The notes beneath the pieces were generated by a model. It was not told the DNA's origin. It did no database searches and was given only the letters and a program-made list of their open reading frames with translations. DNA of 62,974 nt, filler included, from Licmophora abbreviata (Eukaryota), in NCBI GenBank assembly GCA_900291995.1. It is 29 parts of 29 records of this genome, joined end to end, with 100 filler letters (N's around TTAATTAATTAA, not from the genome) between each part and the next. Parts side by side here need not be neighbours in the genome. Positions count along the whole stretch, not along the records: positions 6,751 to 8,846 come from OLMU01005547.1; 28 more parts are not named here. One strand, given 5' to 3'. The translations under genes were made by a program, and so were the position numbers. Positions 6,651-60,577 of the stretch are shown here, in pieces (the stretch's first letter is position 1; each line of letters begins with the position of its first letter).

Positions 6651-6750
6651 NNNNNNNNNNNNNNNNNNNNNNNNNNNNNNNNNNNNNNNNNNNNTTAATT
6701 AATTAANNNNNNNNNNNNNNNNNNNNNNNNNNNNNNNNNNNNNNNNNNNN

Positions 6751-7036
6751 CTAAAGAGGCCGTCCTCGCCTCCCAATGAGGCGACGTCCATGGTAACAGA
6801 AAGTGGACCGTTCTGGTGGTTGCCAGGCCCAGCCATGCACCGACATCCCGAAAGATACGCGAACACAGGAGCGGAAGCGAAGCCATGATTGCCGGGATCA
6901 AGTTCTCCACGTAAAACTCGTAAACAGAGTCAGCCGTCACATTGACGGGATCTCTCCGGTCTCTTTTCTCGTTTGCTTTCATTCTCGAGGACGTTGTGTC
7001 TCCAGAAGACGCAGTTCGTTGCTTGGATTTACCCAT
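6751..7036 (-). CDS. Hypothetical (possibly membrane) protein, 5' fragment
   Basis: ATG at 7036 (MGKSKQRT...) is open to the spacer; hydrophobic stretch LIPAIMASLPLL. Confidence 0.45.
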
Positions 7037-7042
7037 GGTGGC

Positions 7043-7139
7043 AGTGGGTGTGAGTGTGAGTGTGAGTGTGAGTGTGGGAATGAATGATGGCTCGAATCGT
7101 ATCATAGCGAACAGCTGTGCTCACAGCTGTGCTCACAGG
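7043..7139. repeat. (GTGTGA)n microsatellite plus a 12-bp tandem ACAGCTGTGCTC x2
   Basis: Directly visible: gtgggtgtgagtgtgagtgtgagtgtgagtgtggg and acagctgtgctcacagctgtgctcacagg. Confidence 0.85.
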
Positions 7140-7232
7140 CCCGCTCGCGCGTTCACTCAATGACGCGCGTTCCTTACACGGCTGACAAGCAGACACTTAT
7201 GGTTTTCGCTGGCGTCACAACGACTTTTGAAG

Positions 7233-7249
7233 TTTGGGCGCGCCAAAAA
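7233..7249 (-). promoter_or_regulatory. E2F-like site (TTTGGCGC) in a near-palindrome TTTGGGCGCGCCAAAAA
   Basis: Match to the TTTSSCGC consensus on the minus strand (7240-7247), lying between two divergently oriented ORFs. Confidence 0.35.
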
Positions 7250-7400
7250 TTTCGTTAGATTTTCACAGGTTTTCATCGTCGCATCTTGCTTCGTTCGTGA
7301 TGCGGCACCACGGCACATCTCACTCATTGATTGCTTGACTGCAAAAAATGAAAGGCAAAGATTCGTCTCCTTACTTCATTATCCCTCTTGCTTCAGAAGG

Positions 7401-7991
7401 ATGCACCCTTGTCCAGTCCATCCTCGTTCCAACACGGAAACCAAGAACTCTTTTCTCAGTGTCATTTCCGTTCTGCCCAACTCCAAGAGCAGAAGCAGTT
7501 CCTATGAACAAGCCGTCCAGCGTCTCTTGGGTCCGAATCACAACGAGACCGTCGTTTCTGCCATGGAACAGCTTATTTGTGATACTCTTATTATCATGCA
7601 GTTTTGTCGCCGCCTGACCATCGAAGAGGCCGACGTTCGCCAGGCTGCGGACTGTCTAGGATACCAGGTGCCGGAGTCTATTGGTGACATTGCTCTTACT
7701 CACGACACTACTGTCTTTCGGACATTCTTCGTTGAGTGTATCATTGAGCGCTGCAACACTCAGATCCCCATTGACCACGAGCCCCTGATGGCTCTCCAAG
7801 TCATTCTAGAATCTCTCGAAACTGGAACGGTCACGACCACTCCAATGAAACACGGACGAGCCTTTCACCTCGAGTCCCCGACAGGAGTCACGGCTGCTGT
7901 ATTTGCTCGCGACTGGGAAACCTTCCTGGAGGAAGTTGGAAGCGATGAGGAGGACCAGACTGATGAGAGCAGGGTGACTGATCATGCGTGA
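7401..7991 (+). CDS. Divergent histone-fold protein with an H4-like then an H3-like segment (start uncertain)
   Basis: MEQLICDTLIIMQFCRRLTIEEADVRQAADCLGY resembles H4 alpha2-L2-alpha3. VFRTFFVECIIERCNTQIPIDHEPLMALQVILESL resembles H3 alpha1-L1-alpha2. Acidic C-terminal tail. Confidence 0.55.
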   Translation: MHPCPVHPRSNTETKNSFLSVISVLPNSKSRSSSYEQAVQRLLGPNHNETVVSAMEQLICDTLIIMQFCRRLTIEEADVRQAADCLGYQVPESIGDIALTHDTTVFRTFFVECIIERCNTQIPIDHEPLMALQVILESLETGTVTTTPMKHGRAFHLESPTGVTAAVFARDWETFLEEVGSDEEDQTDESRVTDHA

Positions 7992-8227
7992 CTGAATGTG
8001 CGATTCAGTCATGCGGGACTCATGACAAGAAAGTTTGGTTCGAAAAGTTGAAGGTGTCATCGCGATGCGAAGCCTGATGTTGTCCAAGATGACTAACCTA
8101 CTACTCCGTAGGAGCTAGGAGTTCTCGTCGCGGTGGCCACCCCCCACAACGACTGATCAGAAACAACAACAGTGGGCGCAATAAGGCAAGATCACTATCA
8201 AGAAGAAACGGAAAACAACAGGCAAGC

Positions 8228-8846
8228 ATGGCAGCTGAGAAAGCAGCTGCAAAGTTGCTTTCGGCCTCCGTCAACGGACGAGTGGTGGACGTTCCGAGTG
8301 GTGCCACCCTTTTGGACGCCATTAAAGCTGCTGGAGCTCGTGTCCCCACGCTTTGTTACCATCCAGCCTTCAAGGCGAGTGCTACTTGCCGAATGTGTCT
8401 TGTAGAGGTGGAGAATACTCAGCAAAGAGGAAGCCGGCGATCCGGAGGAGAAACCCACCTATCAGCCGCCTGCCACACTCCAGTCGAGCATGGGATGGTG
8501 GTGACTACAGATACAACGGAGCTCCAAAAGTTCCGAAAGCGAGATTTACAGCTTCTCCTTGCGAGACACCCCAACGAGTGCATGCGATGTGAAGCGTCTG
8601 GAAACTGCAAGTTGCAGGACTTAGTTCAGGAATTCCAGGTAGAAGAGCTGTGGCCCAAGTCCAGTCGTGGATCTCCCGAGCATCCGGAGCATCTTCTGCA
8701 CGACCATACTAGTCCTGCGATTTCTCGCGACATGGACAAATGCATCGAGTGTGGGCTGTGCGTCAAGGCCTGCGAGGATCAGCAGATCGGAGCAATTGGC
8801 TTCGCCGAGAGGGGATACGGCCAGCTTCCCATCACCGCCTTTGATA
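8228..8846 (+). CDS. hydA: [FeFe]-hydrogenase N-terminal FeS domains ([2Fe-2S], His-Cys3 [4Fe-4S], first 2x[4Fe-4S] ferredoxin motif); truncated by spacer
   Basis: VPTLCYHP..CRMCLVEV..AACHTP; HPNECMRCEASGNCKLQ; RDMDKCIECGLCVKAC..IGFAERG. An in-frame TGA at 8090 with no ATG before 8228 makes 8228 the start, barring an upstream exon. Confidence 0.88.
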
Positions 8847-8946
8847 NNNNNNNNNNNNNNNNNNNNNNNNNNNNNNNNNNNNNNNNNNNNTTAATTAATT
8901 AANNNNNNNNNNNNNNNNNNNNNNNNNNNNNNNNNNNNNNNNNNNN

Positions 8947-9939
8947 GAGCCACACGTGGTATCGATCATGCCCTGCACCGCCAAAAAGGAAGAGGCCGTC
9001 AGGCCTGGACAGCGAGGAGACATTGATGCTGTGTTGACCACACGTGAGCTCGCCAAGATGATCAAACATAGAGGTATTCCATTCGCCTCGCTTCCTGACG
9101 ACGGAGAGTTCGATAGTCCTCTCGGAGAGTCCACCGGCGCCGCGGCTCTCTTCGGTGCTAGTGGTGGAGTGCTCGAGGCGGCGCTGCGGACCGCAGCTGA
9201 TGCTCTAGGAATCAAAGATGCTCCGATAGATTGGCACGCTGTCAGAGGAGTAGACCGCCGAGTAAAGGTCGCCACTGTTCCTGGCGTGGGGTCTGTCGCA
9301 GCCTGTAACTCTATTGGTGCCGCGATCGATCTGTTGAGTAATGAATCTTGGAAAGACGATTACGTCATGATCGAAGTAATGTCATGTAAGGGTGGATGCC
9401 TGGGAGGGGGAGGTGAGCCAAAGAGCGATGATCCAGATATTCTGGAAAAGCGCGCGGACGGGATCTATTCCATCGACGAGAAGGCAACAGTACGAAAGAG
9501 TCATCAGAACAAGGAAGTCCTTAAGCTATACGACGACTTCCTCGGTCATCCTCTTTCCGAGCAGTCCGAAAAATATCTTCATGCCACGTACGCACAGAGA
9601 CGCTCTCCTCGCGAGAAGCTAATGCGTTTCCTAGATGCCGTCGACCACCGGGACGGCATGGTGGCTTCGAGTCTGTTCGCAGAATGTGGTGAGTGGCGTA
9701 CAAGTCCAGATACAGAAGCCATCCAAGGAAGAGAAGCCATAAGCACATTCATTAGCACCATCCTTCCTCCTCTTCCAAAACTGAAGCCTGGAGTGGATCG
9801 TCCTCGTCATAAGATGGTAAATCATGCAGAAGGCACAGACGTGAGGACGCCCATGGGCGATACAGTACATTTCGACATTGATATCGATTCTGAAACAGGT
9901 CTCATTGCAGCCTTGACCCGTATACCGTTGGAGAGCTAA
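8947..9939 (+). CDS. hydA: [FeFe]-hydrogenase H-domain C-terminal part, small-subunit segment and C-terminal SnoaL/NTF2-like extension
   Basis: L2 motif SIMPCTAKKEE, VLTTRELA, FDSPLGESTGAAALFGASGGVLEAALRTA, L3 motif EVMSCKGGCLGGGGEP, small-subunit RKSHQN..LYDDFLGHPLSEQSEKYLHATY, then about 110 extra residues. Confidence 0.93.
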   Translation, partial: EPHVVSIMPCTAKKEEAVRPGQRGDIDAVLTTRELAKMIKHRGIPFASLPDDGEFDSPLGESTGAAALFGASGGVLEAALRTAADALGIKDAPIDWHAVRGVDRRVKVATVPGVGSVAACNSIGAAIDLLSNESWKDDYVMIEVMSCKGGCLGGGGEPKSDDPDILEKRADGIYSIDEKATVRKSHQNKEVLKLYDDFLGHPLSEQSEKYLHATYAQRRSPREKLMRFLDAVDHRDGMVASSLFAECGEWRTSPDTEAIQGREAISTFISTILPPLPKLKPGVDRPRHKMVNHAEGTDVRTPMGDTVHFDIDIDSETGLIAALTRIPLES

Positions 9940-58133: not shown

Positions 58134-60133
58134 CTACAACAGACTAACCCCGGCCTTTGCAAGCATGTGCTGGAGACCAGCAGAGAGTTTCGGGTCCGCG
58201 CCCAGTCCTTCGTGAATGATAGGTTCCAGGCAACCAGGCTGCGCGGAACTCAGTCCATGAAGAGCTTGGGCGAAGGCAAGAACGGGATCCGAGACTTCAG
58301 AAAATGGGTCTTCCGTCGGCTTCCGCGCGAACTGAAGGCTTGAGTAAGCGGAATCGTACGTGATTTCCTCTTCGACGACAATGTCCACACTATCAGCCTT
58401 GGAATCCGAAAAGGTCGAGCCGGAGAGTGTCAATATGGACACGACAAGCGCTAGAGCCTGGGATAAAACCTTCTGGCCGCTGGGATCCTGAAGAAGGGAC
58501 GACGAGTCAGAAATCAGTCGCGCAAGCCCCACGACCTGAATCTTGGCTTGCATTTGGACAGGAGGGCTGCTCTTCATCGAGGGAACCCAAATTTGGCTGA
58601 GCAGGATAGTGCCGAGCCCTGGCTGTATCGCATTCAACTGCCCAAAATAGGACTCGCCTCCAAGCTTCCCAACGAAGAGGGCCAAGAAGTGCGAAACAAG
58701 ATTACACAGCTTCGGCGTCTTTGAATTCTGCAGGCGAGTCAGAATCATCTCGAAAACAGTGCGAAGGTATTGATGCAAGTCAGTCGATGGAATATGCTGG
58801 ACCAAAGAGCTCAATAAGTCGAAGGCATAAGCTTCGTTGGCTCGGCTCGCGATCAACTTTTGATAGATGCCAAGAATGGTGACCAGATGGCCCATTTTCG
58901 CTATCTCAACACCAGAGTTTCCAAGATATGCGCGGAGCAGACGAGTTAATGCCGGAATGTTGCCCTTTCGTCCCCAAAGGTTTTTATGAAGCAAAGGCAC
59001 AAAAAGAAGGGTGTATGCCTCACCCAGTCCAGCATTACGCGGTCGATACTCCAAGAGCTGTGCCAGCACCTGGAAGACATAGGGAGTGAACTCCGACACG
59101 TCCATCTGTAGGATCATTTGAAAAGGCGGAAAGAGCGCCGCCTCGAATGCAGCAGCTGCATTCGGATCCTTCGAACAGACCGCCCGAACAATGACGGCAA
59201 TCGATTCGAAAACGTAGTGGTTGTACTGAGGATTGCGGGGATTTTTCGCCACCCGGGCGAGACTTGCAGTGAGTTTTTCGAGAACAATCTGCATGAGCGG
59301 CAGCAGATCTTGTTGGCCTACAGCAAGCGACCGCATCACGCATTTCATGACATACGAGTTCTCGTTGAGGCTCTCTGCATCGACGATCTTGAAGAGCGAA
59401 GTGAACAGCTGCTCAAGGTACGGTTTCAGGTCTGATGCGCCAAACTTGGCCTTTTTCTCACCACCCGACGGCCCGTCTCCATCTTGCTTGGTAGTAAGCG
59501 TTCTTTCGATGGCATGAGCCGCATATGTGTGNNNNNNNNNNNNNNNNNNNNNNNNNNNNNNNNNNNNNNNNNNNNTTAATTAATTAANNNNNNNNNNNNN
59601 NNNNNNNNNNNNNNNNNNNNNNNNNNNNNNNTTGGTCGGGAAAATCCACAGCCGCAATCAGACTGATGGCTTCGGAACACTGCGACTGAATACTTGGAGG
59701 GACGGTGCACATGAGTTCGACGAGGTGACTCTTGATCAAGCCACGATCTTTGACGGAAATGTGAATGTCCTTGGTCTTGTCGTGTTCGTCCCAGCCGTTC
59801 TTGACGATGTTTTTGAAATGAACGGCGGCGGCCTGTCGGACGCTTGGATTCGGGACGTTCGCGTTGGCGACTATCTGAAGGACGGCCAAGGGGTGCCCAT
59901 CGATCTTCTGTGCCTGATCTAGCTGCTGTTCGGCTGGAATAGAAAGAGAAGCAGCCAACGGGTGAGAACGGGCTACTGACAGAGTCGGTCGTTCGTTGAT
60001 GGTAGCAAACTTTCTTGCTCTGGCAAGGAGCCGCATTTCTTCGCTTACCGCTACGACGGATGTCTTCCTGCGGCGACAGTGTCTGCTCCAACACAGCATT
60101 GAGCTGTTCGGGACTGAGATGAGACGATGCCAT
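58134..60133 (-). CDS. CSE1: Exportin-2 / CSE1 (split by spacer; intron near 59937-60048)
   Basis: Importin-beta N-domain VRQAAAVHFKN..IKSHLVELM..SEAISLIAAVDFPDQ; ENSYVMKCVMR, NPRNPQYNHYVFESIA, EFTPYVFQVLAQLLE, GNIPALTRLL. Confidence 0.93.
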
Positions 60134-60577
60134 GGTTCAGATACGGTGAAACGCGAGACAAAAAGTCGACTACAGACGGCTCATGCTCATTACAGCATTG
60201 CCACAAGATGTGGCCACAGGATTCATTCTTATTCTCCAACAAGGTGACCGTTATCCCGGACATCAGTTGCGAACCCCGTGGAGAAACTTACTTAATGAGA
60301 GCGAGCCACCACGTACAGTTTGTACTGAAATATACACAATGGATCTTTCTGATTTCGCTTCTTGCAATTCGAAGCTCGCATCAAAATCATGGACCATGGC
60401 GGTCGGAGATCTCTGTTGACATGTTCCCTCTATCAGCTCCCTCTTGCTGCTTCTAACGCTCTGAGACATAGCCCCGTTTCTAAGGGGATGATAATGACAA
60501 GCGGGCCCATGTCAAGAAACGAAATGGCGTGAACAGGAGGATGTGGAAGACTGACGCCAAGAAGGACAATTTCGGAC

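Follow-up and report, generated by a model that had tools for sequence, protein, structure and literature searches.

Histone pairs within a single chain have been described in archaea, bacteria and giant viruses and in a few protein families of animals. The closest described system to the gene reported here is the H4-H3 (Hdelta-Hgamma) doublet of the Marseilleviridae, with structures from Melbournevirus (7N8N, 9CVT) and Marseillevirus (7LV8), in which an H4-like part is followed by an H3-like part within one chain; the formation of nucleosome-like particles by this doublet is described in PMC8357426. We analyzed a stretch of 62,974 nucleotides (nt) of DNA from Licmophora abbreviata (assembly GCA_900291995.1), referred to as the window, and within it an open reading frame (ORF), P0001, which had been predicted from the sequence alone to encode a degenerate H4-then-H3 histone-fold doublet. 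We conclude that P0001 is very probably a real, intron-free diatom nuclear gene and belongs to a small, conserved family of single-chain histone pseudo-dimers that are truncated and beta-capped.

P0001 resembles the viral doublet in its single chain and in the order of its parts, and the viral protein is its best match both in sequence (E 1.2e-8 and 5.6e-9 with two family profiles) and in structure (Z 9.4–9.6). The viral doublet has a complete H3 fold, whereas the P0001 family is predicted to be without the second half of H3 alpha2, loop 2 and alpha3. Further differences are a beta cap, an acidic tail, an acidic character overall and the location in a diatom nuclear genome. With core histones (PF00125) the family shares an H4-type alpha2-loop2-alpha3 motif, M-E-H-x-R-R-M-T-I-x-E-x-D-V, and an H3-type alpha1-loop1-alpha2 start, A-L-x-x-L-Q-x-x-x-E-A. 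Unlike core histones, its members are fused in one chain, have a truncated H3 part, lack basic tails and are net acidic.

Eukaryotic proteins with a double histone fold include Sos, ABTB2/Cca3, Cca3S, SPT proteins and animal fusions of high identity, as listed in parts of a 2026 review (PMC13088155). The Sos N-terminal domain, ABTB2/Cca3, Cca3S, SPT3 and the animal fusions are comparable to P0001 in that an intramolecular pseudo-dimer is used beyond bulk chromatin. The same parts of the review describe Cca3S as H2B/H2A-like and put the identity of the high-identity fusions with histones at no less than 60%, and sections of PMC13520046 give animal H3-H4 doublets as at least 88% identical to human histones, with only animals listed. 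The P0001 family differs from all of these in being H4/H3-like, about 20–24% identical to the doublet, truncated, beta-capped and made up of diatom-type sequences. The text of the 2026 review has 0 occurrences of "diatom", "stramenopile" and "alga", and no algal or stramenopile case is listed in it; passages of PMC11222145 and PMC9145170 contain no diatom case. A description of the P0001 family was not found in the main texts of the literature searched on histone doublets or the double histone fold.

Sequence homology to H4 and H3

P0001 has no in-frame stop, and its frame is open upstream to 7227 without an earlier ATG. In the family alignment the N-termini of the relatives align near the ATG at 7401. 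The ORF and its features are as follows, with column counts out of 24.

7401–7991, plus strand: whole ORF P0001, ATG at 7401, stop at 7989–7991, 196 amino acids (aa), single exon.
7434–7469, plus strand: N-terminal extra helix, residues 12–23, by DSSP of the model, with the family motif s-F-L-d-r-m; of low confidence because the predicted local distance difference test score (pLDDT) is about 60.
7497–7655, plus strand: predicted H4-like histone fold, with alpha1 at 33–43, alpha2 at 51–68, loop 2 R-R-x-T at 70–73 and alpha3 at 76–85 (R70 11/24, R71 12/24, D78 14/24, V79 19/24).
7659–7676, plus strand: conserved G-[FY]-x-[VLI]-P-E stretch after alpha3, with a short strand at 88–89 by DSSP in both models (G87 19/24, F/Y88 19/24, P91 17/24).
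7707–7823, plus strand: predicted truncated H3-like fold, with alpha1 at 103–118, loop 1 and the first 16 residues of alpha2 at 126–141 (F106 21/24, A128 22/24, L132 23/24, Q133 15/24, E137 18/24).
7827–7910, plus strand: predicted three-stranded beta unit, residues 143–149, 152–158 and 164–170, by DSSP of two models, with pLDDT of about 94 in P0001.
7869–7889, plus strand: signature motif L-E-S-P-T-G-V, residues 157–163, the most conserved stretch of the family (L157 23/24, E158 21/24, and S159, P160, G162 and V163 each 24/24).
7914–7988, plus strand: acidic C-terminal tail, residues 172–196, net charge -9, beginning with the helix 172–180.

Homologues were sought by an exhaustive phmmer search of P0001 against 1.84 billion representatives, which returned 20 proteins at E≤1e-3, nine of them at E≤1e-10, the best reaching 2e-24 at 37% identity. 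All but one of these are relatives aligned along the whole length at 30–37% identity. The exception, P0017, a repeat protein of 1863 aa matched only at query residues 151–182, was dropped as spurious and unrelated. The original prediction had named conservation as one of its tests, and with 19 relatives at E≤1e-3 this was borne out. A word-index search with P0001 gave no match among 89 candidates, and the family alignment as a query retrieved only five proteins.

Judged by sequence, the histone likeness of P0001 is above chance only at the level of the family. Pfam contains no family for P0001 at E≤1, and the protein alone found only one match at E=1 among PDB sequences, with residues 55–87 aligned to the H4-like chain of a Marseillevirus nucleosome. 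When a profile of 20 family sequences was searched against 177,635 distinct PDB sequences, two Melbournevirus H4-H3 doublet chains ranked first, with E-values of 1.2e-8 and 2e-8. Two colinear stretches were aligned on the doublet, profile positions 45–82 on the H4-like alpha2-loop2-alpha3 and positions 87–128 on the H3-like alpha1-loop1-alpha2; for the naming of these stretches as particular H3 and H4 helices we assume the correspondence known from nucleosome structures. In 9cvt_C and 7n8n_A the first stretch lies on the H4-like part, and in 2l5a on yeast H4; the third match of the profile was a Cse4-Scm3-H4 single-chain construct (E 1.1e-7), found via its H4 part. Dozens of H3 chains were matched at about 1e-4, with profile positions 89–136 on H3 63–110 and a best independent domain E-value (i-E) of 0.002. 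The best 60 profile matches were all H3, H4-H3 doublet or Cse4-Scm3-H4 chains. A profile of 24 sequences found the doublet at 5.6e-9 and 9.3e-9 and 135 distinct sequences at E≤0.01.

The family consensus stretches that bear the likeness are M-E-H-x-R-R-M-T-I-x-E-x-D-V-R-x-A-A for the H4 type and A-L-x-x-L-Q-x-V-F-E-A-L for the H3 type. The two segments that had been compared with H4 and H3 in the original prediction were located in the translation: segment 1 (MEQLICDT...CLGY) corresponds to residues 55–88 (nt 7563–7664) and segment 2 (VFRTFF...LESL) to residues 105–139 (nt 7713–7817), and M-A-L-Q lies at residues 130–133 inside the H3-like fold of P0001.

Among the 20 members, the core histone family PF00125 was touched by two (best E 0.012) and stayed below the Pfam threshold in all 20, and PF02969 was likewise touched by two (best E 0.06). 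PF02269 and PF00808 were not among the 12 families listed for the 20 members, and neither P0001 nor the 20 members had a Pfam match to CENP-S, CENP-T, CENP-W or CENP-X. On these Pfam results P0001 does not look like an ordinary TAF or CENP subunit.

Predicted structure, truncation and charge

Structures were predicted by AlphaFold2 with the family alignment and without templates. The P0001 model reached a pLDDT of 83.5 and a predicted template modelling score (pTM) of 0.75, with pLDDT above 89 over residues 51–170. It runs from helix 12–23 through alpha1 33–43, alpha2 51–68, a loop with a bridge residue, alpha3 76–85 and strand 88–89 to alpha1' 103–118, a second loop with a bridge residue, alpha2' 126–141, the strands 143–149, 152–158 and 164–170 and the helix 172–180. 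The same order of helices and strands is seen in the model of the relative P0003 (pLDDT 79.9). From the P0001 model, the two folds are predicted to pack against each other within the chain in the manner of a histone heterodimer. A two-copy homodimer prediction scored 0.00, which we take as no answer either way.

Foldseek against the PDB placed Melbournevirus H4-H3 chains in the top three positions, with E-values of 3.6e-4, 2.2e-3 and 2.8e-3 and a probability of 1.00. In VIA-align, for which Z under about 13 can reflect a common arrangement in helical models, the Melbournevirus H4-H3 doublet gave Z of 9.6 and 9.4 over 119 and 123 residues, with a root-mean-square deviation (rmsd) of 4.3–4.4 and 23–24% identity, followed by engineered H2A-H2B single chains at Z≤8.0 and 12–14% identity. 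A scan of 48,161 representative chains, independent of Foldseek, again ranked the doublet 7n8n_A first at Z 9.4. Next came a fused H2A-H2B (7.6), the Melbournevirus H2B-H2A variant (7.4) and the Methanopyrus kandleri histone (6.7), then the Sos histone domain (6.4) and two SAGA chains that span two folds (5.8 and 5.3). These best seven of the 48,161 chains, from Z 9.4 to 5.3, are thus single-chain histone pairs or two-fold SAGA chains, all aligned across both halves. Unrelated folds appeared only below Z 4.6. The CENP-T fold reached Z 3.4 and MHF 2.8–2.9, compared with 9.4 for the doublet, and single TAF, NC2 and NF-Y chains stood at about 3. Identity in the structural alignments was 23–24% for the H4-H3 doublet versus 9–14% for other histone pairs. 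In the BFVD library of viral models the top match was the Melbournevirus H4-H3 doublet as well (E 8.3e-4). The doublet proposed by the original prediction is thus found in the profile statistics and in the predicted fold alike.

Counted strictly, the model contains one and a half folds: the first is complete (33–85), and the second consists of alpha1, loop 1 and 16 residues of alpha2 (103–141). P0001 is therefore best described as a predicted complete H4-like fold followed by half an H3-like fold that is closed by a beta cap. In both models the H3-like alpha2 ends after 16 residues and is followed by strands, the H3-type loop 2 and alpha3 being absent. The histone alignments of the 20- and 24-sequence profiles end at profile positions 128–136, and in the profile searches against PDB sequences no histone match was found in the stretch of the beta unit. 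In the models this unit occupies the place of the remaining H3 alpha2, loop 2 and alpha3, and it carries the most conserved residues of the family. The family is accordingly predicted to be without a complete H3 fold and without the C-terminal alpha2-alpha3 by which two doublets pair.

AVFARDWETFLEEVG, residues 165–179 (nt 7893–7937), had been put forward as a possible alpha3. This was upheld only in part: residues 172–180 do form a short helix of lower confidence in the model, which merges into the acidic tail, and residues 164–170 are predicted as a beta strand. The acidic C-terminus noted at the same time is evident from the net charge of -9 over residues 172–196.

The isoelectric point (pI) of P0001 is 4.73. 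Values of 4.05–5.39 were obtained for 18 of the 20 members, the other two having 6.3 and 7.09. Net charge is negative in the core of 15/20 members and in the C-terminal tail of 17/20 (range -4 to -48). Judging from charge, the P0001 family would not qualify as a basic protein of the Marseilleviridae type.

Family distribution, host genome and neighboring genes

We traced the source of 20 proteins, 18 of alignment A1 together with P0007 and P0025. All of them come from metagenome or run assemblies (JGI, Logan, ENA) and form clusters of 1–4 members; an NCBI or UniRef record was found for none of the 20. One further member, P0031, is a 488-aa transcript ORF from the MMETSP collection of cultured marine protists and shares a 90% cluster with P0021. 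The transcription asked of the gene in the original prediction is therefore on record for this member, not for P0001 itself. Ahead of its doublet domain, residues 63–107 of P0031 are Cys-rich and weakly IBR-like (PF22191, E 0.0082, under the cut-off), which could mean that the domain is fused to a ubiquitin-ligase-type part or that the ORF is over-extended. No RNA run was listed for the stretch; only small, near-identical fragments of contigs, from marine-metagenome runs and from one coded organism, were placed on it with shares of 0.05–0.25, which is uninformative on expression.

Back-translated as a DNA pattern, the signature motif occurs once in the window against 0 expected. The degenerate pattern was found at 13 loci in metagenome contigs, ten of which were dropped as chance matches because tblastn showed no family match. 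The three true loci are the contig of P0003 and two loci from one organism, L011 and L012. In the latter two the family gene is again a single ORF, with genes for ankyrin-repeat, ABC1 kinase and FGE-sulfatase-domain proteins as neighbors. Comparison of L011 2434–9223 with L012 showed an identical middle part of about 5.9 kb, with all 77 differences at both contig ends, a pattern suggestive of mixed strains or of chimeric ends in the assembly. That the family ORF shows 0 differences is therefore uninformative on purifying selection.

The window is composed of 29 short assembly pieces with 28 identical 100-nt linkers (44 N, TTAATTAATTAA, 44 N) between them, so that adjacency across a linker is no evidence of linkage. 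P0001 lies on the plus strand of the piece 6751–8846. As the original prediction stated, hydA follows just downstream, on the same strand and piece, starting at 8228 after 236 nt. The hydrogenase gene is divided over two consecutive pieces, and positions 1–123 of the catalytic-domain model are missing between them. Other features of the window referred to here are the following.

28 sites within 2648–61376, e.g. 6651–6750 and 8847–8946: linkers.
8228–8846, plus strand: N-terminal part of the [FeFe]-hydrogenase, with Fer2_4 (E 9.7e-19), NADH-G_4Fe-4S_3 and Fer4.
8956–9939, plus strand: C-terminal part of the [FeFe]-hydrogenase, with Fe_hyd_lg_C and Fe_hyd_SSU, on the next piece.
58137–59531 and 59632–60180, minus strand: exportin-2/CSE1 C-terminal and importin-beta N-terminal domains, on neighboring pieces.

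At the only other locus with context, that of L011/L012 in one organism, a hydrogenase was not found near the family gene, and the adjacency of the doublet gene to hydA is therefore taken as incidental. The C-terminal hydrogenase ORF goes on for about 110 aa after its small-subunit domain, with a SnoaL-like match that is weak and under the cut-off (E 0.0018).

Scanning of 53 ORFs identified the larger ones in the window as ordinary eukaryotic genes, including poly(A) polymerase, V-ATPase subunit a, exportin-2/CSE1, ArfGAP, Josephin and acyl-CoA oxidase. The organism's own histone genes do not lie in the window. The exportin-2 fragment matched 297 proteins at E≤1e-20. The best named matches, at 58% to 42% identity, are all diatoms (Odontella, Thalassiosira, Stephanocyclus, Cylindrotheca, Nitzschia, Fistulifera and others), and non-diatoms stand at 40% or less. 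On these matches the host is a diatom, and with none of them above 58% identity, the collection searched lacks a close relative of it.

Two further observations concern sequences upstream of P0001. A (GTGTGA)n-type microsatellite at 7036–7085 lies in the 5' region of a divergent ORF (6695–7105, minus strand), is translated as T-L-T-L-T-L on the minus strand, and was skipped as a repeat (7035–7085) in read placement. Three ORFs follow one another between 5275 and 6649 on the plus strand, and the short gaps between them may represent small introns. On visual inspection these ORFs show the ABC-ATPase signature and Walker B of an SMC/Rad50-type protein, and none of the three had a Pfam family at E≤1e-5.

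Mechanism, alternative explanations and significance

In the H3-H4 dimer, the second half of H3 alpha2, loop 2 and alpha3 pair with the end of H4 alpha1-loop1 and join two H3-H4 dimers into the tetramer. In P0001 this tetramer-forming segment would be gone, and of the two loop-loop sites at which an H3-H4 dimer contacts DNA a single one would be retained. What appears to be kept is the H4-like alpha2-loop2-alpha3, the G-F-x-x-P-E strand and one loop-loop site, to which a beta motif and an acidic tail would have been added. In the predicted models, the missing H3 segment together with the acidic charge argues against tetramer formation and, given the single loop-loop site, also against DNA wrapping of the nucleosome or Marseillevirus kind. 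A capped imitation of one H3-H4 dimer could instead bind basic chromatin proteins, either histones or other histone-fold partners, and the contact surfaces would be the H4-like alpha2-alpha3 face that remains, the beta cap and the acidic tail. We infer a nuclear protein of this kind. That P0001 acts as a soluble imitation of the H3-H4 dimer which binds proteins, as a histone mimic or chaperone-like adaptor, fits its acidic charge and the loss of the H3 C-terminal half, and we put this mechanism forward tentatively. The wider explanation, a capped H3-H4 mimic that does not wrap DNA and serves in protein binding, is somewhat better placed, and as a whole it falls only a little short of being probable.

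Several observations weigh against this explanation. The end of the H4-like alpha2 is eroded in P0001, with Q-F in place of the E-H of most members, and roughly every second member has lost the loop 2 R-R (R70 present in 11/24, R71 in 12/24). A slightly positive core (+1 to +5) was found in 5/20 members, and given this a weak DNA contact at the single retained loop site is possible. The VIA-align Z of 9–10 was obtained with a mostly helical model and lies inside the range of which the tool warns, and for this reason the case leans on the agreement of sequence and structure. Agreement of the P0001 and P0003 models is a consistency check and not independent proof, because their alignments overlap.

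The main rival is a module of a transcription complex of the TAF or SPT3 type. P0001 could represent a lineage-specific TFIID/SAGA/NC2-type module, that is a fused TAF6/TAF9-like or SPT3-like unit docking on histone-fold subunits or TBP. TAF6 and TAF9 are the H4-like and H3-like TAFs; their folds bind proteins rather than wrap DNA and are often acidic, and acidic histone folds that do not wrap DNA are the rule in complexes of the TFIID/SAGA/NC2 type, which the non-basic character of P0001 fits. Two SAGA core chains were aligned over both folds (Z 5.8 and 5.3), PF02969 was touched by two of the 20 members (E≥0.06), and an ESM Atlas row included a TFIID subunit 13 cluster at 0.81, which is a lead only. 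TAF6 and TAF9 are, however, two separate proteins with further domains. No member reached E≤0.01 with the TAF, SPT3, NC2 or CBFD_NFYB Pfam models, TAF-type chains scored only about Z 3, the best 60 profile matches were H3, H4-H3 or H4-containing chains and not TAFs, and the beta cap with L-E-S-P-x-G-V is without counterpart there. We regard this alternative as unlikely. Less probable still is that the likeness to histones arose by convergence or merely reflects the prediction, and that P0001 is an unrelated alpha/beta domain whose functional core is the L-E-S-P-x-G-V beta unit. The modest domain-level matches (i-E 0.02–0.07 for the doublet stretches, 0.002 for H3), TM-scores of about 0.4 with rmsd above 4 Å, the position of the most conserved residues outside the histone-like helices and the empty Pfam result for P0001 would all agree with it. 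Yet two separate stretches match H4 and then H3 with whole-sequence E-values down to 5.6e-9, non-histones are absent among the profile matches listed, and a template-free model ranks the same doublet first of 48,161 chains, at an identity (23–24%) well apart from the 9–14% of other histone pairs.

The original prediction had also raised an endogenised viral-type doublet. In its strongest form, a giant-virus H4-H3 doublet that still binds and compacts DNA in nucleosome-like particles, this is the least probable of the explanations considered. Its appeal lies in the H4-then-H3 order and in the Marseilleviridae doublets being the best matches in sequence and structure. The nearest ESM Atlas entries for P0001 and P0003 are unnamed Nucleocytoviricota clusters at 0.84–0.85, which are leads only because these scores are under the 0.9 mark, and endogenised giant-virus DNA is described as common in aquatic protists in sections of Talbert et al. 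2022 (PMC9145170). Against a DNA-compacting role stand the acidic character (pI 4.73 in P0001, family maximum 7.09) and the H3 C-terminal half predicted to be absent. The first rank of the viral doublet is explained by its being the only solved chain with both halves in H4-H3 order, and the per-domain scores show no preference for viral over cellular histones: the H3 part scores 16.6 bits with the viral chain versus 21.1 bits with an H3 chain, and the H4 part 16.6 bits versus 17.0 bits with yeast H4. The DNA pattern of the signature motif had no match in 2.9 million viral contigs. The G+C content of the ORF (0.521) is that of its piece (0.525), and the neighbors of the family gene are cellular, the [FeFe]-hydrogenase here and the ankyrin, ABC1 kinase and FGE-sulfatase genes at the locus of a relative, the pieces being short (2.1 kb). 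Judged from these short pieces, P0001 does not belong to a giant-virus genome. With cellular H3 and H4 scoring as well as or better than the viral chains, a viral origin of the family has little backing and was not adopted. Only slightly less improbable is the suggestion that the family descends from a giant-virus H4-H3 doublet by domestication, or is itself the cellular lineage that gave rise to such doublets, and that diatoms have kept it and remodelled it as an H3-H4 decoy that is acidic and beta-capped. The viral histone repeats would then have in it their first cellular relative to be passed on vertically, and a natural "poisoned" H3-H4 dimer regulating histone supply or nucleosome assembly.

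Irrespective of origin, the capped histone pair is well supported by computation in its homology and predicted fold, and we infer that its function is constrained by fold and charge. The P0001 family is a variant of the double histone fold that is new to the literature searched. Until now, the H4-then-H3 order combined with recognizable H4 and H3 sequence has been characteristic of the doublets of giant viruses. A family of cellular proteins that is conserved and has this order, but is acidic, truncated and capped, broadens the known range of the double histone fold and adds a new data point to the debate on histone exchange between giant viruses and eukaryotes. It also provides a test case for histone pairs re-used as protein-binding modules and, if the models hold, a natural design of a monomeric H3-H4 look-alike that would be unable to tetramerise.

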